Made by a program: the position numbers and the translations under genes. From NCBI GenBank assembly GCA_963798085.1, contig CAWCRS010000003.1, positions 384,001 through 448,000 on the forward strand: a stretch of 64,000 nucleotides of DNA, given 5' to 3'. The notes below the pieces were generated by a model. The model did no database searches, was not told the DNA's origin, and saw nothing but the letters and a program-made list of their open reading frames with translations. Source of the stretch: an uncultured Gemmatimonadales bacterium. GTDB taxonomy: Bacteria > Gemmatimonadota > Gemmatimonadetes > Longimicrobiales > RSA9. Below are positions 37,718 through 61,499 of the stretch, piece by piece. Numbering within the stretch: position 1 is the stretch's first letter; each line of letters starts with the position of its first letter.

Positions 37718-38533
37718 GTGCGCGTGACGCACCTCCGGCAGATCGTGCGTGCGAGCGCTGTGGACGACACCGGCGCCGCCGTGTTTCCCTTCTCGGTTCC
37801 CGCCATCCGCTCGCTCGAGTCACTCGATGTCTCGGCCAATGTCGTGTACTTCGTGGGCGAGAACGGCTCGGGCAAGTCCACACTGCTGGAGGCCATCGCC
37901 GCGGGCGCCCGCCTGCCCACGGTGGGCAGCGCCGAGGTCGCGTATGACGAAACCCTGGCGGCGCAGCGCCGGCTGGCGGCCGCGTTCCGCCTGATCTGGG
38001 AAAAGCGAACGCACCGCGGCTTTTTCCTGCGCGCGGAGGACTTCTTCGGTTTCGCCCGCCGGCTGCGCAGCATGAAGACCGAGCTGCGGCAGCGCATGGA
38101 CGAGGTGGAAGTCGAGTACAAGGACCGGTCCGCACTGGCGCGAGGCCTGGCGCTGGGTCCGCTGGCCGGGTCCATCCACGAGATAACCCGGCGTTATGGC
38201 GAAGACCTGGATGCGCAATCGCATGGCGAGAGCTTCCTGACGCTGTTCCGGGCGAGGTTCGTGCCCGGCGGCCTGTATCTGCTGGACGAGCCGGAAGCCG
38301 CGCTGTCGCCGCAGAGCCAGCTGGCACTGCTGCTCATGCTGAAGCAGATGGTGGCGCAGTCAGGGCAGTTCATCATTGCCACGCACTCGCCCATGCTGCT
38401 GGCGTACCCGGGCGCGCGCATCTACAGCTTCGACCAGTCGCCCATTGCCGAGGTGGCCTGGGCGGACCTGGACCACGTCACGCTGACGCGCGCGTTCCTC
38501 GCCGATCCGGAGTCGTTCCTGCGCCGCCTCTGA
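37718..38533 (+). CDS. ABC/AAA-type ATPase (COG3910-like)
   Basis: GENGSGKST, FFLRAE, SHGESF, LDEPEAALS and ATHSP motifs. Confidence 0.88.
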   Translation: MRVTHLRQIVRASAVDDTGAAVFPFSVPAIRSLESLDVSANVVYFVGENGSGKSTLLEAIAAGARLPTVGSAEVAYDETLAAQRRLAAAFRLIWEKRTHRGFFLRAEDFFGFARRLRSMKTELRQRMDEVEVEYKDRSALARGLALGPLAGSIHEITRRYGEDLDAQSHGESFLTLFRARFVPGGLYLLDEPEAALSPQSQLALLLMLKQMVAQSGQFIIATHSPMLLAYPGARIYSFDQSPIAEVAWADLDHVTLTRAFLADPESFLRRL

Positions 38534-40516: not shown

Positions 40517-41420
40517 GAGAACCTCCGGTCGCAAGGTCGGAGCCGCGCGGAACGGACGCGTTCGTCCTGCTGCAGCCCGCACCGGCCGCAACCGCTGGCG
40601 ACCCGGCTGCAGACTGTGGACGCCTGCTCGCTCTGGCCGTTTCTCCCGCTGCGTGCGGCTGCACCGGCCCGGTCCCGGGCTGCCACGACTCGAGTGCAAG
40701 CGTAAGCAATGCGAACGGCAAACGCGAGCGGATCTTGAGCAGGACGCGCGTGGGATCCTCGGCGATCCACACTTCCGCGCGACGGCTGGCGCCGAAGATA
40801 CCATCATTGTTCACTACCGGCTGGATCACGATCGCATCGAACGTTCCAGCCGGTACCGTCACGCGCTCGCGTCGCAGGACCGTGACGGTTACGGGATTCT
40901 CCGCCCGCCTGAAATAGCGATCGAAACGGTACGTCTTCCCGGGCTCGAGCGGGATCGTGCGAATGAAGAACAGGAAGGACGCATCATCGAGCGGCTCGGA
41001 AACCGATAAGGCAGTGCTGTCCGCCGTCTCGTCGAACATGCTCGTGTCTCCCGGACAGAATGCCCACGCGTGATGCACGTGACTCGATCCTTCGTTCAGC
41101 GTCTGAACGAATCGGACCGAGCGCATGGCGTCCGGATCGAACGAACTCTCGAACGCATCGTTCACGTGAAAGAGCAGTGTGCCACCGCGGAACGCAACGG
41201 TGAAGTGGATCAGGGGGTCACTGTCCAGCGGTTTCATTCCGGTTACGGTCAGGGTGCCTGAACCCACATGCAAGACGCCGAACTTCATTGCGTAGGTCAG
41301 GTTTTCGCCGACCCTGAAGGGCAGCGGAGCCGACAGCTGCCGCGCGCTGAGCCCACCGGGCAGCAGCCCGGCCACCAAAGCAGCGGTCATTGTTCCCCGG
41401 TTGCGAACCCGGGCGTACAT
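40509..41420 (-). CDS. DUF3108 domain exported protein
   Basis: PFRVGENLTY, LFFIRTIPL, ERVTVPAGTF and EVWIAED motifs; start approximate. Confidence 0.75.
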   Translation of the reverse strand: MYARVRNRGTMTAALVAGLLPGGLSARQLSAPLPFRVGENLTYAMKFGVLHVGSGTLTVTGMKPLDSDPLIHFTVAFRGGTLLFHVNDAFESSFDPDAMRSVRFVQTLNEGSSHVHHAWAFCPGDTSMFDETADSTALSVSEPLDDASFLFFIRTIPLEPGKTYRFDRYFRRAENPVTVTVLRRERVTVPAGTFDAIVIQPVVNNDGIFGASRRAEVWIAEDPTRVLLKIRSRLPFALLTLALESWQPGTGPVQPHAAGETARASRRPQSAAGSPAVAAGAGCSRTNASVPRGSDLATGGSHG

Positions 41421-42024
41421 GCTGCCCCGCCCGCCCGCCAGCGAGGCCAGGGGGCGGCCTGCCCGCGCTTTCGGGACTCGTACGCGCCTCTCGCGACGCA
41501 TTGCCTCTGTCATGATGATTTGCCTGCCCGCCGACGACACCGGCCGGAATGAACTGCAGATCGAGATCGTCCGAAGGCGGTCTCCTGCAGACGACGATCG
41601 AGCCGGCACGCGATCATCGCCTGCGCCGGTCCTACGTTGTGCTTCACGGGAATGTTCCGGTTCTGCCCTGTCACGCATCCGTCATGTGCAGCATGACACG
41701 AACGTGACGCATAGGTATAACATGGTATTACAGACTGCGCGGCGACGCGAGCAGTGTTGCCGATTGCCCAGTGAAACACACGGCTGGTTGTGCGTCGAAC
41801 CGGCGTTGACGCGGACACGATCCAGGCGCGCGCGGAGCAACGCTGCGTGCCTGCCGGGTGCGACGACTTGTGCGTAACGTTGTCCGGCACTGGAGTCGGC
41901 GAGGCCCTGTTGCACCCGACCCTGCGGGCCGCGCGACCGGCGAGCCGATACTGTCAACGGAGAAGCCCGCTACCGCACGAACCACTCGTTGAAGACACGA
42001 GCAATGTCAGCGAACCCGGCCAGC

Positions 42025-42465
42025 ATGGATCCCGTCGAGTTTGTACGCGCGGACGCCCGTCTGCGACGCAACGCGATTGGCCTTGCCTTCTGCGGCGTGG
42101 TTGTCGGAGCGCTGACGATCGGGTGGGTTCTGCCCTGGTTCCTGCGGGTGGTGCAGGAGAAGGCATTGCGTGCCGGCGGGTTCGACCGGCGCATCGTGTG
42201 CATGAGCTTCCTGGTGGTGGTGTCGTTGGTGGCGGCAAGTGTGGCTGGCCTTGGTGTGAGCGCCGTGCGTCAGGGGCGGCGCGTCTGTGCGGCGGACCGT
42301 TATCCGCTGGCCGGCATGAAGGTGCTGCGGGATACGCGTGTGCTCCGCGGACGCGCCGCGCAGATCACGGGCCGCGGGCAGATGCTGATCGGCGGCACGC
42401 TCGTGGGTCTCGCGCTGTTGCTGCTCGCCGTCTCCATCTACGGTGCTCTTCTGCTTCTGCATTGA
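42025..42465 (+). CDS. Hypothetical membrane protein with 3 TM segments
   Basis: Three hydrophobic segments and a RYPLAGMKVLRDT loop. Confidence 0.6.
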   Translation: MDPVEFVRADARLRRNAIGLAFCGVVVGALTIGWVLPWFLRVVQEKALRAGGFDRRIVCMSFLVVVSLVAASVAGLGVSAVRQGRRVCAADRYPLAGMKVLRDTRVLRGRAAQITGRGQMLIGGTLVGLALLLLAVSIYGALLLLH

Positions 42466-42933
42466 AGCGCGCCGCCAACGCCTTTCGCCCGACTCTGACC
42501 CTCCGGTCCGGCGCACATCGGGCATGGCCGTTCCTCCCGCCTGACGCGGTTCGGTTCGATCCGACGTCCGCCGCGCTGCGGTGCGGAGCCGAAACGGACG
42601 CTCTTCCGCATCGTCGCCAGCTGTAAGAGTCTGTTTTGGCGTGGGATGGCGTGATACCTTGATACGGCTTCGCGCCAAGCGCTGCGCCGCGTTCATGAGC
42701 CCTGCCGCCGGGGCCATGCCCGGACCGACCTTTCCGCACGTCGCGTGACGATGGGCGCCTTCTTCGATCTGCCGGGACAGTTCCGGGTCCCATCATCATC
42801 GGGCTGAGCGGTCTGGCGCCAATCGGCGCTGTCGCGCGCATTGCGCGTCGCGGCTGCACCTGAACGCAATGCCGGGAGGCATGCGCCTGTGCGCGAGCCT
42901 GCCCGTTTCTCGCCTTCGTGATGCGGAGGTTTC

Positions 42934-45900
42934 ATGGCCAGCAGGAAGCAGACTACGAAGCGTGCTGTGAAGCGGGGTCGCAAGAGTGCAGCGAAGTCGT
43001 CGGCCGCGCGAGTGAAGGCCGCTTCGACGACGCAGCCGGATCGTTCGGCGCACGCACTGCAGGATGCTGCAGTGGAGGCGGCGCTGGCGACGGGCGAGCT
43101 GAGCGGGCCGCTCGAAGATTATTTCGGTGCGGCGAACTACGCGGAGCTGCGGCAGCTGGCGAGGGAAGCATCGACGCGCGCGGCGGTGCGGGGTGGTCCC
43201 CGCGTACTGATCCTTCCGGGCATCATGGGCTCGAAGATCGGCACGCAGGGTCCATTGATCTTCGATCATGTCTTCTGGGTCGACCCCATCAGCATTGCGG
43301 CGGGCAAGCTGGCGGACCTGGCGCTGCCGGGCAGCAGGAAATTCGAGCCGCTGGGTGTCATTCTGCTGGCCTACCTCAAGCTGAAGCTGCGACTCGTCGC
43401 TGCCGGCTATAACGCGGAGTTCTACCCGTTCGACTGGCGCCAGAGTGTGGACGATCTGGGGCGTGGCCTGAAGCAGCGCATCGAGCAGACGCCGGGGGAG
43501 TTGTCACTGGTGGCGCACAGCATGGGCGGGCTGGTGTCGCGCGCCGCCGTCGCGCAGGGCGCGAAGGTCAAGCGATTGATCATGCTGGGCACGCCCAACT
43601 TCGGCTCGTTCGCACCCGTAATGGCCATCCGCGCGACGTATGATGTGGTGCGCAAGGTGGGCTGGCTGGACACGAAGCACACGGCCGAGCAGCTGAGTCG
43701 CGATGTGTTCGGCACGTTTCCCGGGCTCGTGCAGATGCTGCCTTCGCCCGACCACTGGGACGGCCTGAACCTGTACGACCGCGCGACGTGGCCGGGTGAC
43801 CTGGCGCCGCACGCCGATATTCTGGCCGCCGCGCCCGGCGTGCAGAAGTCGCTGTCGCCGGGCCGCGACAACTTCTACCTGATCGCCGGCGTGGAGAAGT
43901 CCACGGCGGTGAGCACGCGGCTGGAGACTGACAACGGCGTCACGCAATTCGTGTACGACTACTCGCTCGAGGGTGACGGCACGGTACCCCTTGCCTTCGC
44001 GAAGCTGCCCGGCATTGCAAAGACGTACTACGTGGTCGAATCGCACGGCAGCCTGCCCAACAACGGCACGGTCGAGCAGGCCGTGCTGGACCTGCTGGAG
44101 AAGGACAGCACGAGTGTGCTGCCGGAGAGCTGGACGCCGCCGCAGCAGCGCGGCGCGGCGACGCGCCGGGAATCGGAGCTGCGCACGGAGCCGTTCGGCG
44201 GGCGGCGCGCCGGTCTGCTGAGCCAGTCGGAGGTGCGCCACCTGCTGGATGAGGTGGCCTCGCCGGACGCCGCGGAAACGGGCGAGGCGACAGGCGCGGC
44301 CACGGCCGCCGCGCCTGCGGCAGCGCCTCTAACGCCCGGTTATCAGCACGCCTTCGACCACGTGGTCGTGGGCCGGCGCACGCAGCATCGCATTGACCTG
44401 CGCTTCGCACAGGGCAGCATCACGGAGGCGAACACGCGTGCCATTCTGCTGGGCGTGTTCAGCGATGTCACGCCGTCGGGTGCGGCGAGGGCGCTGGACG
44501 AGCGCCTGGACGGCGCCATTACGGATCTGTTCCGCCGGCGCATGTTCGAGGCGAGGGTGGGTGAGGTGTTCGTGCTGCCCAAGGGCCGGCACCTGCTGGC
44601 GGCGGACTTCGTCACGTTCGTGGGACTGGGAAGTTTCGACCGCTTCGGCGACCAGTCGCTGCAGACGGCGGCCGAGAATGTGATCCGCATGCTGATCGCC
44701 GCCCGCATCGAGGAGTTCGCGACCGTGCTGTTCGGCGGCGGCTCGGGCGAGAGCCCGGCAGGCGCGCTGCAGAACCTGCTGACGGGATTCTTCCGCGGGT
44801 TGCGTGATGCGGATCACGATCAGGATTTCCGGCGCATCGTCATCTGCGAACAGGACCCGGCGCGCTACATCGCGCTCAAGTCGGAGCTGTTCCGTCTGTC
44901 CAGCACGGCGCTGTGCCAGGATGTGGAGATCACGTTCGAGGAGAAGCCACTGCCCGAGCCGCCGATCCTGACGGCGACCGAGACGCGCGGCGTCTCGCGC
45001 CTGGATCCGGTCTACCTGATCGTGCGCCAGGAGCAGAATGTGGCTGGCGACACGCACATCCGCTCCTCACTGCTGACTGCGGGCGCCAAGGCGACGATCA
45101 TCTCCGGCGTCCTCACCAATCCGGCCAGCGATCTGGAAACGCTGCGCCGCCAGATCGCCGAGGTGGATTCGACGAATTTCGAAAAAGCGGGGCCACAGCT
45201 GGCGCAGGCGGTGCTTTCCGAGCAGATCGTGCAGGTACTGCCCCGCTACCGCGACCATCACCTGGTCGTGGTGCACGACGCGGCCATGTCGCGTGTTCCG
45301 TGGGAAGTCATGGGACTGCGGTCGGGCGATGGTGACGCGGGTGGCGTGTGGTTCCCGGCTCTCGAGAAGGGCCTGACACACCGTTATGCCGCGGACAATC
45401 TCTCGGTTGCGAAGTGGCTGGAAGAGCGCGTGCAGGATGACAAGCTGAACATCCTGGTCGTGATCAATCCCACTGAGGACCCGGGCCTGGCGGCGGCCGA
45501 CATCGAAGGTGACCGCGTCGCAAAGCTGTTCGCGGGCCGTACCGACGGCGTGGTGCAGGTGTTGAAGGGCGCGGCGGCCACGCACCGCGCACTGCTGGCC
45601 GCATTCAGCTCGGGCAGGTACGATGTGATTCATTATGCGGGCCACGCCTTCTTCGACCCGCAGAATCCCGAGCGCAGCGGCATTCTCGCCCATCGCGAAG
45701 AGCCGCTGACCGGCGCGCAGCTGGCCGGGCTCAACAACCTGCCCACGCTGGTATTCTTCAATGCCTGCGAATCGGCGCGGGTGCGCGGCGTGCGCGGTGG
45801 CCCGAAGCTGAAGTTCAAGGCGCCCGCCTCGAAGCAGGAACACGCCGAGCGCGCGGTGGGCTTCGCCGAGGCGTTCATGCGCGGCGGCATTGCCAATTTC

Positions 45901-46122
45901 CTGGGCACGTACTGGCCCGTGCACGATGCGTCCGCCGGTGATTTCGCAGAGACGTTCTACGGCGAGCTGGTGCAGGGCAGCACGCTGAGCGACGCCCTGC
46001 TCGCGGGCCGCCGCCGTGTGCACGAGTTGACGGTGAACGAGGGTCAGAAGGACTGGGCCGATTACGTCTTCTATGGCAGTCCCGACTTCAGTCTGAAGCA
46101 ACCGCCGCCGGCGGGCGGCTGA
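42934..46122 (+). CDS. Multidomain protein: LCAT-like alpha/beta lipase + macro/M17-N-like domain + CHAT caspase-like protease
   Basis: Lipase motifs PGIMGS, FDWR, AHSMGG, GTPNFGS and GDGTVP; middle segment GSITE...GAARALDERLDGAI; CHAT dyad HYAGH and FFNAC, plus GTYWPV and DWADY. Confidence 0.85.
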   Translation: MASRKQTTKRAVKRGRKSAAKSSAARVKAASTTQPDRSAHALQDAAVEAALATGELSGPLEDYFGAANYAELRQLAREASTRAAVRGGPRVLILPGIMGSKIGTQGPLIFDHVFWVDPISIAAGKLADLALPGSRKFEPLGVILLAYLKLKLRLVAAGYNAEFYPFDWRQSVDDLGRGLKQRIEQTPGELSLVAHSMGGLVSRAAVAQGAKVKRLIMLGTPNFGSFAPVMAIRATYDVVRKVGWLDTKHTAEQLSRDVFGTFPGLVQMLPSPDHWDGLNLYDRATWPGDLAPHADILAAAPGVQKSLSPGRDNFYLIAGVEKSTAVSTRLETDNGVTQFVYDYSLEGDGTVPLAFAKLPGIAKTYYVVESHGSLPNNGTVEQAVLDLLEKDSTSVLPESWTPPQQRGAATRRESELRTEPFGGRRAGLLSQSEVRHLLDEVASPDAAETGEATGAATAAAPAAAPLTPGYQHAFDHVVVGRRTQHRIDLRFAQGSITEANTRAILLGVFSDVTPSGAARALDERLDGAITDLFRRRMFEARVGEVFVLPKGRHLLAADFVTFVGLGSFDRFGDQSLQTAAENVIRMLIAARIEEFATVLFGGGSGESPAGALQNLLTGFFRGLRDADHDQDFRRIVICEQDPARYIALKSELFRLSSTALCQDVEITFEEKPLPEPPILTATETRGVSRLDPVYLIVRQEQNVAGDTHIRSSLLTAGAKATIISGVLTNPASDLETLRRQIAEVDSTNFEKAGPQLAQAVLSEQIVQVLPRYRDHHLVVVHDAAMSRVPWEVMGLRSGDGDAGGVWFPALEKGLTHRYAADNLSVAKWLEERVQDDKLNILVVINPTEDPGLAAADIEGDRVAKLFAGRTDGVVQVLKGAAATHRALLAAFSSGRYDVIHYAGHAFFDPQNPERSGILAHREEPLTGAQLAGLNNLPTLVFFNACESARVRGVRGGPKLKFKAPASKQEHAERAVGFAEAFMRGGIANFLGTYWPVHDASAGDFAETFYGELVQGSTLSDALLAGRRRVHELTVNEGQKDWADYVFYGSPDFSLKQPPPAGG

Positions 46123-46165
46123 CCGGGCTGACTCGTACTGACGCGAATCCGGATGGAGGAGAGCG

Positions 46166-47573
46166 ATGCCTGACCAGACATGTTTCGTGATTCAGGGCTT
46201 CAACAAGAAGCAGGACTATCCGACGGGCCGGACGCTGGACCTGGACGCGTCGTACGCGGTGATCAAGGAAGCCGTCGAGTCCATGGGTCTGAACTGCGTT
46301 CGTGCGGATGAGATCAAACACTCCGGCACGATCAATGAACCGATGTTCCAGCAGATCCTGGATGCCGACATCGTGATCGCGGATCTGTCGACGTACAACG
46401 TGAACGCGGCCTACGAGCTGGGCGTGCGCCACGCACTGCGCCCGTATACGACGATCATTGTGGCCGAGAATCAGATGAAATACCCGTTCGACTTCAGCCA
46501 CATCGCCATTCAGTCGTACGAGCATTCTGGGTTCGGATATCGGACGGCGCGAGGCCGCGCGCTTCCAGGACGTGCTGCGCGGCCTGATTGCCGCGCTGCT
46601 GCAGAAGAGCAACACGGACAGTCCGGTCTACACCTTCATCCCCGCACTGACGCCGCCGGCCCGTCCCGCACCACCACCACCGCCACCGCCGCCACCCGCG
46701 CCCCCGGCCGCTCCCGCGACACGCGGCGCCTCGCCGGCGCCAGCCGCTGCGCAGCCTCAGGCGGCGGGCGCAGCCGCCGGCACGGCCGCAGCCGCAGGTG
46801 AGAGCATCAAGTCGCGCACCGACCGGGCAAGAGACGCACTGCGCCGCAGCGACTTCGTGACCGCACGCGCGGAGCTGCTGTCGCTGCAGAACGATCTGAA
46901 ACAGTCAGGCACTCCGGACGCCTCGATCACACAGATGCTGGCGCTGGCTACCTACAAGGGCGGCAAGCCCACCGTGGATGCAGCACTGGGTGAAGCACGC
47001 GGTTATCTCGCGGAGCTGGATCCCGCCAATTCGCATGACACGGAGACGCTGGGACTGTGGGGCGCCATCCACAAGCGGATCTGGGACCGGAGCAGGGATC
47101 CGGCGGCTCTCAATGAGGCCATCCGCGGTTACGAGCGCGGATTCCAGCTGCGACAGGATTACTACAATGGCATTAACTACGCGTTTCTGCTCAATGTGCG
47201 CGCGCACGAGCTGACCGGGACGAAGCTGCCCGAGGCCGTGACCGACTGGGTGATCGCGGAGCGGGTGCGCCAGCAGGTGCTCGAGATCTGCGCCACGGAG
47301 CTGCAGAAGATCCCGGCTGTAGACGTCACTGCCGATGACGCGGCGTCGAAGGAGCTGATCGACCGCAAGTACTGGATCCTTGCGACACTGCAGGAAGCGG
47401 CCGCAGGTCTGGGCGACGACGCTGCCATGGACCAGTGGAAGCAGCAGGCGGCCGCGCTCAATCCTGCGGGCTGGATGCTGGAATCGACGATCAGTCAGAT
47501 CATGCGCCTGCAGCAGCTGCTGGCCGATCCGCCCACGCGCGCGCTGGGCGCCGCCGCCGGCGCCGGTACCTGA
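46166..47573 (+). CDS. Nucleoside deoxyribosyltransferase-like domain + Pro-rich linker + TPR (DUF4071/MAP3K TRAF-binding-like); +1 frameshift near 46525
   Basis: CFVIQGF, RADE and ADLSTYNVNAAYELGVRHAL; removing one T gives YEHLGSDIG; ETLGLWGAIHKR, YYNGINYA, YWILAT and WMLEST in the helical part. Confidence 0.82.
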
Positions 47574-47668
47574 AGACGCGGCGATCTGCGTCGAGCCATG
47601 TGCATGAGGACTGCATGCAACAGGCGGGTGCGAAACCGCCGATCCGGCCGGCCTGACGCTCTGTCAGG

Positions 47669-48286
47669 GTGAGCTACGATCTGAGTCTGACGCGCGGCAA
47701 TTACGCCTGGGAGAACGCCGGCGTCGAGATCGCGCCCTTCGAGCTGCGCGAGCTGATGGCCGGCGATCGCTCGTTGCGTGGCGAGCTGATCGATGGCGAA
47801 CTGGTCGGCTTGCGCTGGGGCGGCCATCCGGATGGCGACACGGTCGTGTTCCGCCTGGCCGACGGCAATCTCGTTGCCAGCGATCCCGACCGCCCCACGG
47901 TCAGCAAGCTGGTCGACATGGCCACGCGGCTGCGCGGGCGCGTGCTGGGCGATGACGGCGAGCGCTACGCCCGCGATGGCAGCTGGACGCACCCTGCGGC
48001 CGGCGCCGGCCGCGTCGGTGGTGCGACGCAGGACCGCCGCCAGTTCTTCCGCGGCCTGTTCGACATGGCGCGCCAATCCGTGCGCGCCACCCCAGCCCGC
48101 CCGAATGCCCCCTTCCACAAAGGCGATCGCGTTCGCGATACCGCGGGCAATGTGGCAACCGTTCTCGGCATCGAGTACGTCAACGGCGGCGGCCTCAATG
48201 TGCTGGTCACGCGCTTCCCGGATGGGAGGCTGGTGAAGAGGGCGCTGAGGACGACGCAGGACCTGGTGAGGGAGGCGCAGGCGTGA
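47669..48286 (+). CDS. Hypothetical protein
   Basis: GC3-biased ORF; N-terminal SYDLSLTR and ATRLRGRVLGDDGERY; C-terminal FHKGDRVRD SH3/KOW-like segment. Confidence 0.6.
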   Translation: MSYDLSLTRGNYAWENAGVEIAPFELRELMAGDRSLRGELIDGELVGLRWGGHPDGDTVVFRLADGNLVASDPDRPTVSKLVDMATRLRGRVLGDDGERYARDGSWTHPAAGAGRVGGATQDRRQFFRGLFDMARQSVRATPARPNAPFHKGDRVRDTAGNVATVLGIEYVNGGGLNVLVTRFPDGRLVKRALRTTQDLVREAQA

Positions 48287-48332
48287 ACCGCGTCACGAGG
48301 ACCATGATCGGTACGCCACGTCTTCTGGTAGC

Positions 48333-48815
48333 TCCACGCAAACGGATCGTTATCACACAGGGGACACGGGGGGATCTGAGGGGCGCTGGTCGGGAGCGGG
48401 ACAAGCCCATGGCCTTTTTGTCGTTCCAGGCAAACGGATCGTTATCACACAGGGGACACGGGGGGGGTTAGGGGCGCTGGTCGGGAGCGGGACAAGCCCA
48501 TGGCCTTTTGTCGTTCCACGCAAACGGATCGTTATCACACAGGGGACACGGGGGGATGCGAGGGGCGCTGGCTGGCACCTGGACCAACCCGGTCGTGGGG
48601 GAGGCCGGTGCTTGGAGGATCTGATTGACGGATTACGAAAACATCACGTGCACCCGATCAGGGCCGGTCACCCGTAGATCCTGATTTGTGCAATATCTGT
48701 TGAAACAGATTCCGCGGTCCTCTCCTGTCACGCCCGACTGCGTGAACCGCGCCCCTCAGTAGCCTCAGTTCCCCCGTGTTATCCTCTGTGTGAAAACAAT
48801 CTGTTTGCCTGGAAC
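48333..48815. repeat. Repeat family C: about 2.6 tandem units of 90-92 bp plus an inverted copy, flanking an AT-richer core
   Basis: TCCA(C/G)GCAAACGGATCGTTATCACACAGGGGACACGGGGGG at 48333/48425/48515; reverse-complement variant at 48749-48815. Confidence 0.88.
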
Positions 48816-49328
48816 TCCCTGCACGCCGACCGGAGCCGCCCGCTCACCGTGACCTCGCACCACAGCCCCACCCCTCCGCAGCCGTCGCTCCGGCAGCCCG
48901 AGGAGGAAGATGCTGAAGGCGCAGCCGGCGCAGGTCACGCACCAGGGGCAGAAGGCGTGGATGAAGAAGACTTCGACGCTGGTGTTGTAAGTGGCGAAGG
49001 CGGCGGCGCAGCAGCCGAGTGCGAACAGCGTTGTAGACACGCCGCGGTCTTCGAAAAAGCGCGGGCGGGTGCCGGCGAGTGCGGTGGACAGGAGCGCCGT
49101 GTACGCAACCACACCAATGTAGACAACGGGGATGCCCGCCAGCTTCGACCACTCCGAGAGCTGCACCGTTTCGCAGCCTTTGCCGGCGACGCCGCAGAGG
49201 AGTGTGCCCAGTATGCCAAGGCGGTACAGCGACAGATAAATGGCAATCATCAGTCCGACCAGCGCCAGCAGGGCAATGCCCATGCGCCGGTAGATGGTGG
49301 CTGCGGATACAGTGGCGCCTTCATTCAT
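48765..49328 (-). CDS. Vitamin K epoxide reductase (VKOR) family protein
   Basis: C-x6-C loop, V-x-x-S-x-WS, GIP and FCPWC redox motif. Confidence 0.88.
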   Translation of the reverse strand: MNEGATVSAATIYRRMGIALLALVGLMIAIYLSLYRLGILGTLLCGVAGKGCETVQLSEWSKLAGIPVVYIGVVAYTALLSTALAGTRPRFFEDRGVSTTLFALGCCAAAFATYNTSVEVFFIHAFCPWCVTCAGCAFSIFLLGLPERRLRRGGAVVRGHGERAAPVGVQGVPGKQIVFTQRITRGN

Positions 49329-50804: not shown

Positions 50805-52620
50805 TCAGGCATGCCCACCCTCATACGCCCAGTTGACCACGCCTACGGCCGCCCAGGCTACGCCCATGAGTGGCGCCCACCAGAGGTGCGTCAGGAACAG
50901 GGCGAACGTGCCGACCACGCCCATGGCGGTGAACAGCGGCCAGTAGGAAGGTGGCGGCATGTGGAACGACTCGGGCGGGCCGAAGGCGACGGCTTCGACG
51001 CGCTCGCGCTCGAGCCACAGCGGTTCCCGGCTGTGCACCGTGGGTATGCGCTGGAAGTTGTGCTCGACGGGCGGGCTCTCGGTCGCCCACTCGAGCGTCG
51101 CTGCGCCCCACGGATTGCGGCCCGCGGGCTCGCCATGTTTGAGACTCCGGAACACGTTGATGAAGATCAGCAGCACGCCCACCGCGGTCAGGAATCCGCC
51201 GACCGTGGCGATCATGTTGAGGTTGCCGAGGCCCAGCTCGCTCGAGTACGTGAATACGCGCCGAGGCATGCCCAGCAGGCCGATCCAGTGCATGGGCAGG
51301 AACGTCGTGTGCAGGCCGACGACGTAGAACCAGAAGCTCCACCTGCCCAGCCGCTCGTTCATCAGACGGCCGGTGACCTTCGGATACCAGTAGTGGATGC
51401 CGGAGAGCACGCCCAGGATGAGGCCGCCCAGCAGCACGTAATGGAAGTGCGCGACGACGAAATACGTGTCGGTCTGCTGCAGGTCGTGCGGCGATGTCGC
51501 ATGCATCACACCGGAGACACCGCCCATGGTGAAGGTCGCGACCGCGGCCGTCGCGTACATCATCGCAGCTGGTGAAGCGGATCGAGCCGCCCCACATGGT
51601 GGCAATCCAGTTGAAGATCTTCACGCCCGTCGGGAATGGCGATGATCATCGTGCTGATGGTGAAGAACGAATCGGCAATCGGCCCCATGCCGGTGGCGAA
51701 CATGTGGTGCGCCCAGACGCCCCAGCCGATCGAGGCCGATCAGTGCGCCCGAGTACACCATCACGGCGTAACCGAAGAGCGGCTTGCGCGAGAACGTCGG
51801 AATCACTTCGGACAGGATGCCGAATGCGGGCAGGATCAGGATGTACACTTCCGGATGCCCGAACAGCCAGAACAGGTGCTGCCAGAGTATGGGATCGCCG
51901 CCGGCCGCGGTGGCGAAGAAGAGCGTGCCCCAGAAGCGGTCGAATGTGACCAGGAACAGCGCCACCGCGAACACGGGCAGTGCGGTGATGATGATGAAGC
52001 TGGTGATCAGCGCCATCCAGGTGAACAGTGGCAGGCGCATCAGTGCGCATGCCGGGCGCGCGCAGGTTTACGATCGTGGCAATGAAGTTGACGCCGCCCA
52101 TGATCGACGCGATGCCCAGCATCTGCAGGCCGAGCGCCCAGAAATCGATGTTGAGGCCGGGCGCGAACTGGCGCTCCGTGAGGTTGGCGTACCCGAACCA
52201 GCCGCCGTTGGGCGCCTGACCCACGAGGAAGCTCGAGTTCATGAACAGCGCGCCGAAGAAGAAGATCCAGAAGGAGAGCGCGTTGAGGCGAGGGAACGCC
52301 ACGTCGCGGGCGCCGATCTGGAGCGGCACGATGAAGTTGAAGAATGCTACGGCAATGGGCATCCCGACCAGGAACACCATGGTCGTGCCGTGCATGGTAA
52401 ACAGCTGGTTATACGTGTCCGCGGTAACGAAGTGGTTTTCCGGCCGGGACAGCTGTATGCGCATCAGCAGGGCTTCGATGCCACCGACCAGGAAGAAGAC
52501 CAGTGCGGTGAGGCCGTACATTACGCCGATCTTCTTGTGATCGACGGTCGTGAGCCACTCCCACACGACCGACCTGCGCTCGTGCGTAGCGACTGCCACC
52601 GGTGTTGCAGTGCTTGCCAT
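50805..52620 (-). CDS. ctaD: Cytochrome c oxidase subunit I; about 4 single-base frameshifts
   Basis: TVDHKKIG, TMHG, FPRLN, WLFGHPEVYI, VWAHHMF, AHFHY and GMPRR motifs. Confidence 0.93.
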
Positions 52621-60057: not shown

Positions 60058-60266
60058 ACAGGCTGTTGCCCTTCTGACGGGCGGGGTCGCGGCCTGCATG
60101 CGACCTCGCCCGTTTGCTTTCCAAACCCGCTGTCAGGCCCCGCGTGTCCGCTTTCCGCATCGCTTTGCGCGTCACTGGACAGTCCGGTAAGAGGCTGGCC
60201 TGCCGTTCCCCGCTGCGCCGCCCGACAGCTCCGGACCGTTCCAGCCAAGCCAATGGAGCCAGACCC

Positions 60267-61499
60267 ATGTCCAGCGTTCTGCAGAGCGTTCTGACCCGCA
60301 TGCTCGCATTCGCCGCCCGCGACCGGCAGCGCATCTTCATCAGCTACCGCCGCCGCGGTGAGGGCGCGGGGTACGCCGGCCGCCTGGCGGACCGGCTGAT
60401 CCACGAATTCGGGTCGGACCAGTGCTTTCGGGATATCGACGACATCGAATCAGGCACCGACTTCGTGGAAGCCATTTCCCACGCCGTGGGTTCATGCGAC
60501 GTGCTGATTGCCGTGATCGGCCCCGACTGGCTGAGCGCCACCGACGCGCACGGCCAGCGGCGGCTCGAGAATGAGCGCGATTTCGTGCGTCTGGAGATCA
60601 CGGCCGCCCTGGCAAGGGACATACGGGTGGTGCCCGTGCTGGTCGGTGCCGCGCTCATGCCCACGCCCGAACAGCTGCCGGACGCCATGGCCGCGCTGTC
60701 CCGCAGGCAGGCACACGAGCTGAGCGACACCCGCTGGGACTACGACGTCAGCCAGCTCATCACGTCCATCGAGCGGCTCGGTATCCGCCGCGCGCGCGAC
60801 GCCAGTCGCCAGCCCGTGCGCCGCCGCTGGAAGCTCGCGGGCGCGCTCGTGGCCGGCTTCACCGCGATCAGCCTCGGCATCGCGGCGCTCAGCTCTGCCA
60901 TCGACCGCATGAACACGGCTTCGCTGGATACTCTCCCCGCGTTCACTCCCGCCGCCGGCGGGAGTGCGGTCGATGGCATCCGTACTGCGTCCGAATCCGT
61001 TCCGCTGCGTACCCCGCACACCGAGTTGGTGAAGAGCGGCGCAGACCGCCGGGACGTGTCGTATCAGCCACCCGACCCGACACTCGGACAGGGACCCGCC
61101 ATTCTCGCCGCCATGCGCCGCGCGAATCAAGCGGAGACGGAGGCGTTCCGTGCGCTCGATGAGGACGTGCTCAATGGCCCGTTCACAGGCGAGGCCCTGG
61201 CCATGGAGCAGCTGGCGCTGCGGGGTCTGGCTGCCGCCGGCCAGTTCACGGTCAACACGCTGCACGACCAGCGCATCCTCTCGCTGAACGTGAGCCCGGA
61301 CGGCAGCAGCGCCACGGTTCGGGCGGTGGAGACCTGGAGCGACGTCCACTATAACGCGCTGTTGCGCCAGTGCATGTTCCGCGTGCCGCCGCACGAAGTG
61401 CCGCAGACCGTGCGCCTGCTGCGGGTGGCGGGATTGTGGCGGGTGACGGCAATTGAAGGCGACGCCGCCGAATCACCGGATCCGACGCCCTGCGTGTGA
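60267..61499 (+). CDS. TIR domain protein with a TM helix and a C-terminal extracytoplasmic domain
   Basis: IFISYRR, FRDIDDI, DVLIAVIGPDW and DFVRLEI; hydrophobic helix at about aa 190-215. Confidence 0.85.
   Translation: MSSVLQSVLTRMLAFAARDRQRIFISYRRRGEGAGYAGRLADRLIHEFGSDQCFRDIDDIESGTDFVEAISHAVGSCDVLIAVIGPDWLSATDAHGQRRLENERDFVRLEITAALARDIRVVPVLVGAALMPTPEQLPDAMAALSRRQAHELSDTRWDYDVSQLITSIERLGIRRARDASRQPVRRRWKLAGALVAGFTAISLGIAALSSAIDRMNTASLDTLPAFTPAAGGSAVDGIRTASESVPLRTPHTELVKSGADRRDVSYQPPDPTLGQGPAILAAMRRANQAETEAFRALDEDVLNGPFTGEALAMEQLALRGLAAAGQFTVNTLHDQRILSLNVSPDGSSATVRAVETWSDVHYNALLRQCMFRVPPHEVPQTVRLLRVAGLWRVTAIEGDAAESPDPTPCV

Follow-up and report, generated by a model that had tools for sequence, protein, structure and literature searches.

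A lipase, macro-like and CHAT protease fusion encoded beside a Tpr-core N-glycosidase: a likely rare variant of Tpr-centred conflict systems in an uncultured Gemmatimonadales bacterium

Introduction

We analysed two adjacent genes in a 64,000-nucleotide stretch of DNA, called the window below, from an uncultured Gemmatimonadales bacterium (assembly GCA_963798085.1, contig CAWCRS010000003.1, forward-strand positions 384,001 to 448,000). In our numbering the window is G000:C3:384001-448000, G000 being the source genome, which measures 6.2 Mb in 12 contigs and is rated 90% complete. Gene 1 encodes a single polypeptide chain that joins a lipase-type alpha/beta-hydrolase, a macro-like domain and a CHAT protease. 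Gene 2 encodes an N-glycosidase domain of the MilB type followed by a TPR-S helical repeat, the build of the core Tpr protein of the Tpr-centred assemblies. The pair is likely a rare and possibly decaying variant of the Tpr-centred conflict systems that signal through nicotinamide adenine dinucleotide (NAD+), and not a wholly new system. That the two genes act together as a facultative Tpr-centred abortive-infection module is a reading to which we give an even chance. The gene 1 family is itself widespread, uncharacterised and normally autonomous.

In Thoeris and in type III CRISPR systems with SAVED-CHAT or Craspase, a nucleotide-derived signal or a sensor scaffold acts on a death effector, and CHAT serves as a gated protease. 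For the gene 2 family the relevant precedent comes from Bacillus cereus, where BcTpr, a MilB-like N-glycosidase followed by a TPR domain, is encoded beside a TIR gene (10.1101/2023.05.26.542521). With reference to Burroughs and Aravind (2020), that preprint names such a protein as the core of Tpr-centred assemblies. BcTir and BcTpr provide anti-phage defence with depletion of NAD+ and formation of a cyclic ADP-ribose (cADPR) isomer by BcTpr, and all of this was lost in the N82A and E86A mutants (10.1101/2023.05.26.542521). Among 78 operons of Tpr-centred assemblies, the core alone was the commonest class (29), TIR accompanied it in 28, and YpsA, patatin, LSDAT and calcineurin were among the other partners; 'Caspase' is also listed among the Tpr-core partners in the legend of Fig. 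5B (10.1101/2023.05.26.542521).

Results

Layout of the gene pair

Both genes lie on the forward strand of the window, gene 1 at 42934-46122 (+) and gene 2 from 46166 (+), separated by a 43-bp spacer, as had been reported by the sequence-only reading that preceded this analysis. With a shared strand, a 43-bp spacing and a ribosome-binding site for each gene, the layout appears operon-like, which argues for co-transcription. A promoter and terminator scan gave one promoter-like site (shuffle mean 1.0) and one terminator-like site (shuffle mean 3.4, so that the real sequence had fewer), and an Rfam scan of window positions 41000-49000 returned no match at E <= 0.1. The features of the pair are the following.

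42925-42929 (+): GGAGG ribosome-binding site, 5 nt upstream of the gene 1 ATG, read off the sequence
42934-46122 (+): gene 1, an intact, uninterrupted open reading frame (ORF) of 1062 aa with LCAT, Peptidase_M17_N and CHAT above the Pfam cut-offs
43189-44133 (+): alpha/beta-hydrolase (LCAT-type lipase) domain, residues ~86-400, with S196 (43519-43521), D348 and H371
44371-44949 (+): macro-fold / M17-N-like domain, residues ~480-672, from Pfam, model and Foldseek
45187-46080 (+): CHAT (caspase-like, clan CD) protease domain, residues 752-1049, with H904 and C945
46156-46162 (+): GGAGGAG ribosome-binding site within the 43-bp spacer ahead of gene 2, read off the sequence
46166-47573 (+): gene 2, Tpr-core type, ~468 aa on read-through of a single +1 frameshift
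46166-46646 (+): MilB/NDT-like N-glycosidase domain (NDT, nucleoside deoxyribosyltransferase; DRHyd superfamily) with N78, N80 and E84 (N-x-N-x-x-x-E-L-G)
46523-46526 (+): one-base insertion site, reading CATT at a point where homologs call for a His codon of three bases and then Leu
46650-46799 (+): Pro/Ala-rich low-complexity linker, from the translation, equivalent to the low-confidence stretch 166-181 of the homolog model
46800-47573 (+): TPR-S / MAP3K_TRAF_bd helical repeat (ASK1 central-regulatory-region-like), from Pfam and VIA

Gene 1 joins a lipase, a macro-like domain and a CHAT protease

The three domains of gene 1 were assigned by Pfam as LCAT over residues 150-380 (E 8e-8, 32.3 bits against a cut-off of 21), Peptidase_M17_N over residues 506-619 (E 2.8e-11, 43.9 bits against a cut-off of 23.4) and CHAT (PF12770) over residues 752-1049 (E 3.1e-37). 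The lipase domain has a complete triad, made up of a G-x-S-x-G nucleophile elbow in VAHSMGG (S196), the aspartate of GDGTVP (D348) and the histidine of ESHG (H371). These three residues and the CHAT dyad, H904 and C945, never vary across an alignment of 30 sequences with 50-66% identity (A1). An apparently intact lipase, recognised by AHSMGG, GDGTVP and a later His, and a CHAT protease with a His-Cys dyad had both been proposed in the sequence-only reading, and both were borne out. Also near-invariant in A1 is R86-G87-G88-P89, directly ahead of the first lipase strand; visual inspection of the gene 1 consensus showed no other conserved R-G. A profile search of the PDB matched the lipase domain to 7x2p, a putative lipase (E 2.5e-7), PADLOC matched gene 1 to BovA at domain level (E 1.3e-6), and NCBIfam gave a weak match to the cell-division CHAT protein HetF (E 1.7e-4).

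For the middle domain, residues 470-760 were folded together with 25 orthologous stretches, giving a model with a predicted local distance difference test score (pLDDT) of 82. Foldseek returned 362 matches to this model at E <= 0.001. The best in the PDB were the N-domains of leucine aminopeptidase (LAP; 8pzm, E 1.5e-10), and YmdB, TTHA0132, macro domain 2 of PARP9 and macroH2A1.1 came next at E ~1e-8 to 1e-9 with TMt of 0.75-0.81. Because LAP N-domains were matched first and macro domains after them, the model places the middle domain within the macro fold, on the M17-N branch. In sequence the domain resembles LAP N-domains more closely than it does the catalytic macro domains. The macro/M17-N-like domain claimed from the letters of the window was thus recovered by both Pfam and Foldseek.

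Sequence searches with gene 1 found 1173 relatives at E <= 0.001, of which 120 were listed at 48-66% identity. CHAT is common to all 120 listed relatives and M17_N to nearly all of them, P0086 being one that was seen without M17_N.

The coupling of a protease of this clan to a hydrolase has precedents. In Kaur et al. 2020 (PMC7159879), caspase-superfamily domains in the conflict systems described there always occur with a neighbouring alpha/beta-hydrolase, and in Evans et al. 2025 (PMC12642450) a caspase-like protease cuts its hydrolase at two sites between R and G, after which the fragments kill the cell. Gene 1 resembles these pairs in that a clan-CD cysteine protease is coupled to a lipase-like alpha/beta-hydrolase death effector, and its near-invariant R-G before the hydrolase core recalls the R/G cleavage motifs of LcHydrolase. 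It differs from them in being one chain, with a macro-like domain between the two enzymes, a protease of the CHAT family, only one conserved R-G seen by eye and no separate hydrolase gene.

Gene 2 is a protein of the Tpr-core kind

The C-terminal part of gene 2 matched TPR-S (PF20308) in Pfam at E 4e-22 (79.2 bits against a cut-off of 27.6) and MAP3K_TRAF_bd, formerly DUF4071, at E 1.9e-10. The N-terminal part matched a PADLOC TIR effector model (E 2.3e-6), and Nuc_deoxyrib_tr at E 0.085 only. The N-x-N-x-x-x-E motif of this part is invariant in alignment A2 and was kept in 71/71 homolog loci that include the N-terminus. A search of the PDB with the gene-2 sequence profile gave no meaningful match (best E 0.093).

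The fold of gene 2 was read from a model of the homolog P0125 (pLDDT 85), which is 85% identical to the window protein over the N-domain. The top Foldseek match of this model was the ASK1 cryo-electron microscopy structure 8qgy_A (E 2.6e-6), aligned over 471 columns that cover both domains. With VIA, too, the P0125 model matched ASK1, at Z of 16.3 and 14.9, the higher score being that of the central regulatory region (5ulm_B). When residues 2-153 of the model were taken alone, VIA gave MilB (4ohr_A, Z 12.5, root-mean-square deviation 3.8, 136 residues aligned) and the NDTs 6evs_B (Z 12.2) and 7o62_A (Z 11.7). An NDT-like domain with a YELG glutamate (here E84), a poly-Pro linker, a DUF4071-like repeat and a likeness of the whole to the ASK/MAP3K regulatory region had all been read from the sequence beforehand, and all agree with these results.

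Gene 2 is of the Tpr-core kind by its domain build and its N-x-N-x-x-x-E spacing. Like the proteins of the Tpr-centred assemblies, BcTir-BcTpr included, it has a MilB-like N-glycosidase followed by a TPR region of ~230 residues, and N80, N82 and E86 of BcTpr, as given in the preprint, have the same N-x-N-x-x-x-E spacing as N78, N80 and E84 of gene 2. The Tpr-centred assemblies and the relatives of gene 2 alike have TIR, LSDAT and patatin partners, and stand-alone copies are common in both. Unlike the situation in BcTir-BcTpr, the partner of gene 2 is a lipase/macro-like/CHAT fusion in place of TIR, and gene 2 is frameshifted.

Of all structures, ASK1 (MAP3K5; 8qgy, 5ulm), through its thioredoxin-binding domain (TBD) and TPR, fits the gene-2 family model best in both domains. 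Unlike ASK1, gene 2 lacks PH, kinase and SAM domains, its chain stopping with the TPR-S, and its N-domain has retained a glutamate motif of the glycosidase type. The likeness is one of build and not of membership. The TPR scaffold was reportedly predicted by Burroughs and Aravind in 2020 to sense NAD+-derived signals, and the ASK signalosome scaffold is said to have been derived from it. The same derivation is repeated in PMC8195603, and 10.1101/2023.12.20.572539 describes how the homologous TPR of ASK1 docks onto the effector kinase domain and restrains it. Our literature search found no paper that treats the lipase/macro-like/CHAT architecture or reports it paired with a Tpr core, although either may be listed in the preprint supplements or in the 2020 paper.

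Evidence against a conserved two-gene system

Most of the results of this section weigh against the reading of the pair as a working module. PADLOC v2, a check that the sequence-only reading had proposed, recognised no system for the pair or for its homologs and gave domain-level matches only, to BovA for gene 1 and to the TIR effector for gene 2.

Gene 2 lacks one uninterrupted frame in the assembly and is spread over two overlapping ones. Intact homologs (433-470 aa) read YEHLGSDIGRRE across the break, and a four-letter step at codon 120 (46523-46526, read X) opens a frame of 468 residues that has no other lesion. Downstream of the break gene 2 aligns in all 61 invariant columns of an alignment of 28 sequences (A4), a point in favour of the module; the break must therefore have arisen very recently or stem from the assembly. 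The only public sequencing run that shared words with the window (8% of those sampled) yielded contigs mostly from other organisms, without coverage of 46523-46526. Fifteen other long ORFs of the window have normal Pfam matches, and no pair of them splits one family. COX1 (50805-52620, -), 4 kb downstream, is spread over at least three frames with a stop present, and its ortholog in a second genome of the same genus (G001) reads in one frame, with 77-89% identity to each piece. COX1 is here either a pseudogene or the site of several clustered indels of the assembly, and its break bears on the reality of the gene 2 frameshift: because COX1 is broken here while the G001 ortholog reads in one frame, indel errors in this region are suggested, against which stand the normal Pfam matches of the fifteen other ORFs. 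In this assembly the gene 2 product may be inactive.

If gene 2 were a regular partner of gene 1, then relatives of gene 2 should be found next to gene 1 in other genomes. No such relative lay beside gene 1 at the 34 other loci that have a full-length ortholog and 1.5 kb or more of downstream sequence (0/34). Nor did any lie within the flanks when gene-1-like loci of every kind were taken together (0/75 other loci), 71 of which came from species-representative genomes and four from relatives. (A search of genome contigs with gene 1 as a single query gave nothing; the loci were recovered with an alignment as the query.) Likewise, full-length gene 2 was not found in any of 12 genomes that hold a gene-1 ortholog, namely G001, G009 and the ten genomes to which loci L015-L019, L021, L022, L026, L036 and L076 belong. 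Three of the 12 gave partial matches, to the N-domain only in G428 and G433 and to two other proteins in G001. Gene 1 of G001 (60% identity) sits at the same place and between the same flanking genes as in the window, and G001 is without the segment at 46.03-49.55 kb, 3.5 kb in length, in which gene 2 is accompanied here by an ORF that defied annotation, a VKOR gene and a short array of repeats.

In loci from Steroidobacteraceae and from proteobacterial metagenome-assembled genomes (MAGs; L022-L078), gene-1 relatives were found in stable housekeeping synteny at about 20-35 loci, with an amidase, a PCuAC copper chaperone, an acyl-CoA dehydrogenase and an EAL protein as neighbours. Because the same housekeeping neighbours are kept, this suggests that gene 1 was vertically inherited in that lineage rather than hopping between islands. 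Among related genomes the distribution is patchy, with full-length gene-1 orthologs in 3/41. Queries for TIR-WD40, LSDAT, patatin and DUF4231 found almost nothing at the gene-1 loci, the matches being a patatin in L083, a DUF4231 in L077 and a fused TPR-S in L085. Gene 1 is usually solitary, and therefore it is able to act without gene 2.

The neighbourhoods of gene 2 were sampled at 80 metagenome loci, with neighbours scored within 5 kb. Short flanks were common in this sample: 31/80 loci had at least 3 kb upstream and 23/80 at least 3 kb downstream. The neighbours form a varied set of conflict-related genes, which counts in favour of the module: TIR-WD40 (22/80), LSDAT SLOG (15/80), patatin lipase (14/80), DUF4231 (4/80) and a lipase-CHAT-like protein at only four loci (L095, L120, L122 and L164), among which L095 alone has a protein of the gene-1 type without a TPR-S of its own. 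At L090, L100, L108 and L129, no partner was present in 7 kb on both sides.

With co-localisation at 0/75 loci from the gene 1 side and 4/80 from the gene 2 side, the pair is not a conserved two-gene system, and the homologs are largely not co-localised across genomes, an outcome that the sequence-only reading had itself named as one that would refute it. The same reading did not recognise the pairing as a named system. Gene 2 is nevertheless the core Tpr of the Tpr-centred assemblies, for which a 'Caspase' partner is already listed in the preprint. Of the signalling module that had been proposed, the logic agrees with what has been put forward, and partly tested, for the gene-2 family (10.1101/2023.05.26.542521), whereas the conserved pairing and the unnamed status do not. 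The tree on which the recurrence of the pairing is judged below must be counted on this side as well: it is a rapid reconstruction by maximum likelihood from the C-terminal 270 residues of gene 2, with 92 rows, two of which are very long.

Recurrence of the pairing and fused relatives

The pairing is found again at a small number of places outside the window. At L095, which belongs to a lineage far from that of the window, an ortholog of gene 1 (48% identity; LCAT, M17_N and CHAT) ends 51 nt ahead of a Tpr core. L164 (3-8556, +) has a row of five co-oriented genes that encode a CHAT-TPR-S protein whose N-terminus is lost at the contig end, a Tpr core, a patatin, a TPR protein and a TIR_2 protein. 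The Tpr core of L120 lies 863 nt ahead of a gene for a DUF7379-LCAT-CHAT-TPR-S protein of 1844 aa, and the neighbour at L122 is a divergent lipase plus M17-N gene that runs off the end of its contig. The best database matches of the two window genes, P0004 for gene 1 (66%) and P0124 for gene 2 (52%), each lie on a JGI contig of 13,033 nt, which suggests that the two may be on one and the same contig.

In the tree, the window gene 2 groups with P0124 and P0125 and is split (SH-aLRT 97) from a group of 77 rows, inside which L095, L120, L122 and L164 are scattered. The association is therefore seen at several separate places in the tree. Because lipase-CHAT-like genes number one or two per genome, chance adjacency within 5 kb should, by a rough estimate, occur at well under 1% of loci, against the 4/80 observed. 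The clustering of defence genes in islands could inflate the observed figure.

A protease and a TPR-S are also found joined in one chain. The source genome encodes a paralog of this kind, P0243 (G000:C5:708245-712924, -; L013:6243-11024), with ~1560-1600 aa and the domains DUF7379, LCAT, a weak M17_N, CHAT and TPR-S. Two genes away from it lies a TIR-WD40 gene (L013:1081-3804, -). An upstream DUF7379 ORF of 501 aa overlaps the P0243 gene and hints at another frame break there. The CHAT plus TPR-S part of P0243 gave 2516 matches, and both domains are carried by 117 of the 120 relatives listed, P0286, P0307 and P0330 being those listed without TPR-S. P0282 (2211 aa) and P0362 (2136 aa) have a TIR_2 domain in addition, so that lipase, TIR, CHAT and TPR-S occur in a single chain.

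These lipase-CHAT-TPR-S fusions (~1800 aa) share with gene 1 the order of lipase, weak M17-N and CHAT. They differ from the window pair in that the TPR-S is in cis, where here it belongs to the separate gene 2 protein, in the missing glycosidase and in the extra N-terminal DUF7379; their identity to gene 1 is only ~26%. In a sample of 401 genomes from the phylum, a full-length Tpr core was present in G000 and G149 only and the fused family in G000, G149 and G136 only; the two co-occur in G149, unlinked there. This co-occurrence, a small and non-independent count, points the same way as a functional link. A looser functional link between the two families survives because the pairing recurs at scattered positions in the tree and because lipase-CHAT-TPR-S fusions are widespread.

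Surroundings of the pair

The surroundings of the pair are weakly island-like. A truncated AAA_15/AAA_21 ATPase of 271 aa (37718-38533, +), 4.4 kb upstream, matches many models of defence ATPases, mad3, AriA, PtuA and GajA among them, and sits in a segment at 37.7-43.2 kb that is missing from G001. A TIR_2 protein of 473 aa (60078-61496, +; Pfam E 3e-12) is encoded 12.5 kb downstream of gene 2, past a cytochrome oxidase cluster, and has a weak ThsB-like match in PADLOC. No TIR gene adjoins the pair, this one being the nearest. The source genome as a whole has 17 TIR_2 matches and several CHAT matches. Unlike Thoeris and the SAVED-CHAT and Craspase systems, the pair is adjoined by no SAVED, SLOG/ThsA or Cas component, and PADLOC gave no match at system level.

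An ORF at 47669-48286 with coding-like composition (GC3 0.85) was considered as a third component and rejected, as it has no Pfam or PADLOC match and no relative in any of the fetched loci. Between this ORF and the VKOR gene lie three tandem copies of a 91-93-nt unit (48316-48590), and an inverted partial copy follows ~300 nt further on (48771-48815). The repeat gave eight blastn matches on four contigs of the source genome. It is thus dispersed at low copy number, and in the window it lies inside the segment that is missing from G001.

Discussion

How the two proteins would work together can be outlined from their domains and from the precedents above; all steps beyond the domain assignments are inference. 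The TPR-S of gene 2 would sense a trigger and switch on the glycosidase centred on E84, which would turn NAD+ into an ADP-ribose-derived signal. This signal might be read by the macro-like domain of gene 1 as a candidate receptor; alternatively, the TPR-S might dock on CHAT, as it may do in cis in the fused paralogs. CHAT would then cut its own or a neighbouring chain, possibly between R86 and G87 ahead of the first lipase strand, and the freed lipase would attack membrane lipids, so that the cell dies before phage maturation. We propose a protease-gated lipase because Kaur et al. 2020 and Evans et al. 2025 couple a caspase-like protease to a hydrolase and gene 1 joins both. In its most specific form, this would be a one-chain death switch, in which the macro-like domain binds the NAD+-derived product of an ASK1-like glycosidase-TPR protein and CHAT cuts between R86 and G87 and frees a membrane lipase. 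We regard that full version as unlikely. If it were true, it would represent a bacterial 'caspase-activated lipase' governed by an ancestor of the ASK signalosome scaffold.

The main rival to the facultative module is that two autonomous single-gene systems happen to stand side by side, one a self-contained protease-gated lipase and the other a decaying stand-alone core Tpr NADase in a variable spot. We consider this possible but less likely than the module. The solitary gene 1 of all 34 other full-length loci, the lack of any full-length gene 2 in the genomes searched, and G001, which has gene 1 and lacks the 3.5-kb segment with gene 2 together with the unrelated ORF, the VKOR gene and the repeats, are what it would lead one to expect. 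So are the frameshift in gene 2, the partnerless Tpr cores of L090, L100, L108 and L129, and the prominence of the core alone as the commonest class of the preprint (29/78 operons). It accounts less well for the 43-bp spacing, shared strand and separate ribosome sites, which favour co-transcription, or for the same order and spacing in L095 and L164 and the wide occurrence of lipase-CHAT-TPR-S fusions. Both families moreover co-occur in G149, though unlinked, and gene 2 shows no decay past the frameshift.

A non-immune role for gene 1 seems improbable to us. On this explanation gene 1 would be a vertically inherited, regulated enzyme of lipid or protein processing, with a part, for example, in cell death induced by stress or during development, or in the remodelling of membranes; the presence of gene 2 would be incidental. 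The housekeeping synteny of the Steroidobacteraceae and proteobacterial MAG loci, the position that gene 1 shares between two congeneric genomes, the weak HetF match (E 1.7e-4) and the finding of no mobile-element genes beside gene 1 all speak for it. They are set against the patchy occurrence of full-length orthologs (3/41 related genomes), the paralogs and relatives that stand within rows of TIR, patatin and TPR-S genes, and the combination of a caspase-like protease with an alpha/beta-hydrolase, an established pairing in conflict systems. Less probable still is that gene 2 acts as a guard or antitoxin-like inhibitor, with its TPR-S holding the CHAT of gene 1 inactive until a trigger arrives. 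Such restraint would have a parallel in ASK1, whose homologous TPR restrains the kinase domain (10.1101/2023.12.20.572539), and the TPR-S directly follows CHAT in the fused relatives. Yet G001, G009 and ten other genomes have an intact gene 1 although no full-length gene 2 was found in them, and the neighbour of the intact gene 1 here is frameshifted. Gene 2 is therefore not a required inhibitor, and an antitoxin-type gene 2 was rejected on the same ground.

Returning to the facultative module, the window is a weak exemplar of it, given the frameshift in gene 2 and the rarity of the pairing; the intact pair of L095 and the five-gene row of L164 are better ones. The building blocks themselves are abundant, with more than 1,100 relatives of the lipase/macro-like/CHAT protein and more than 2,500 of the fused lipase-CHAT-TPR-S protein. 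If the coupling is true, then NAD+-derived signalling and the proteolytic licensing of death effectors, both prominent topics in present work on bacterial immunity, would be united in one small module, and bacteria would offer a setting in which an ASK1-type TBD-TPR scaffold controls a caspase-like protease.

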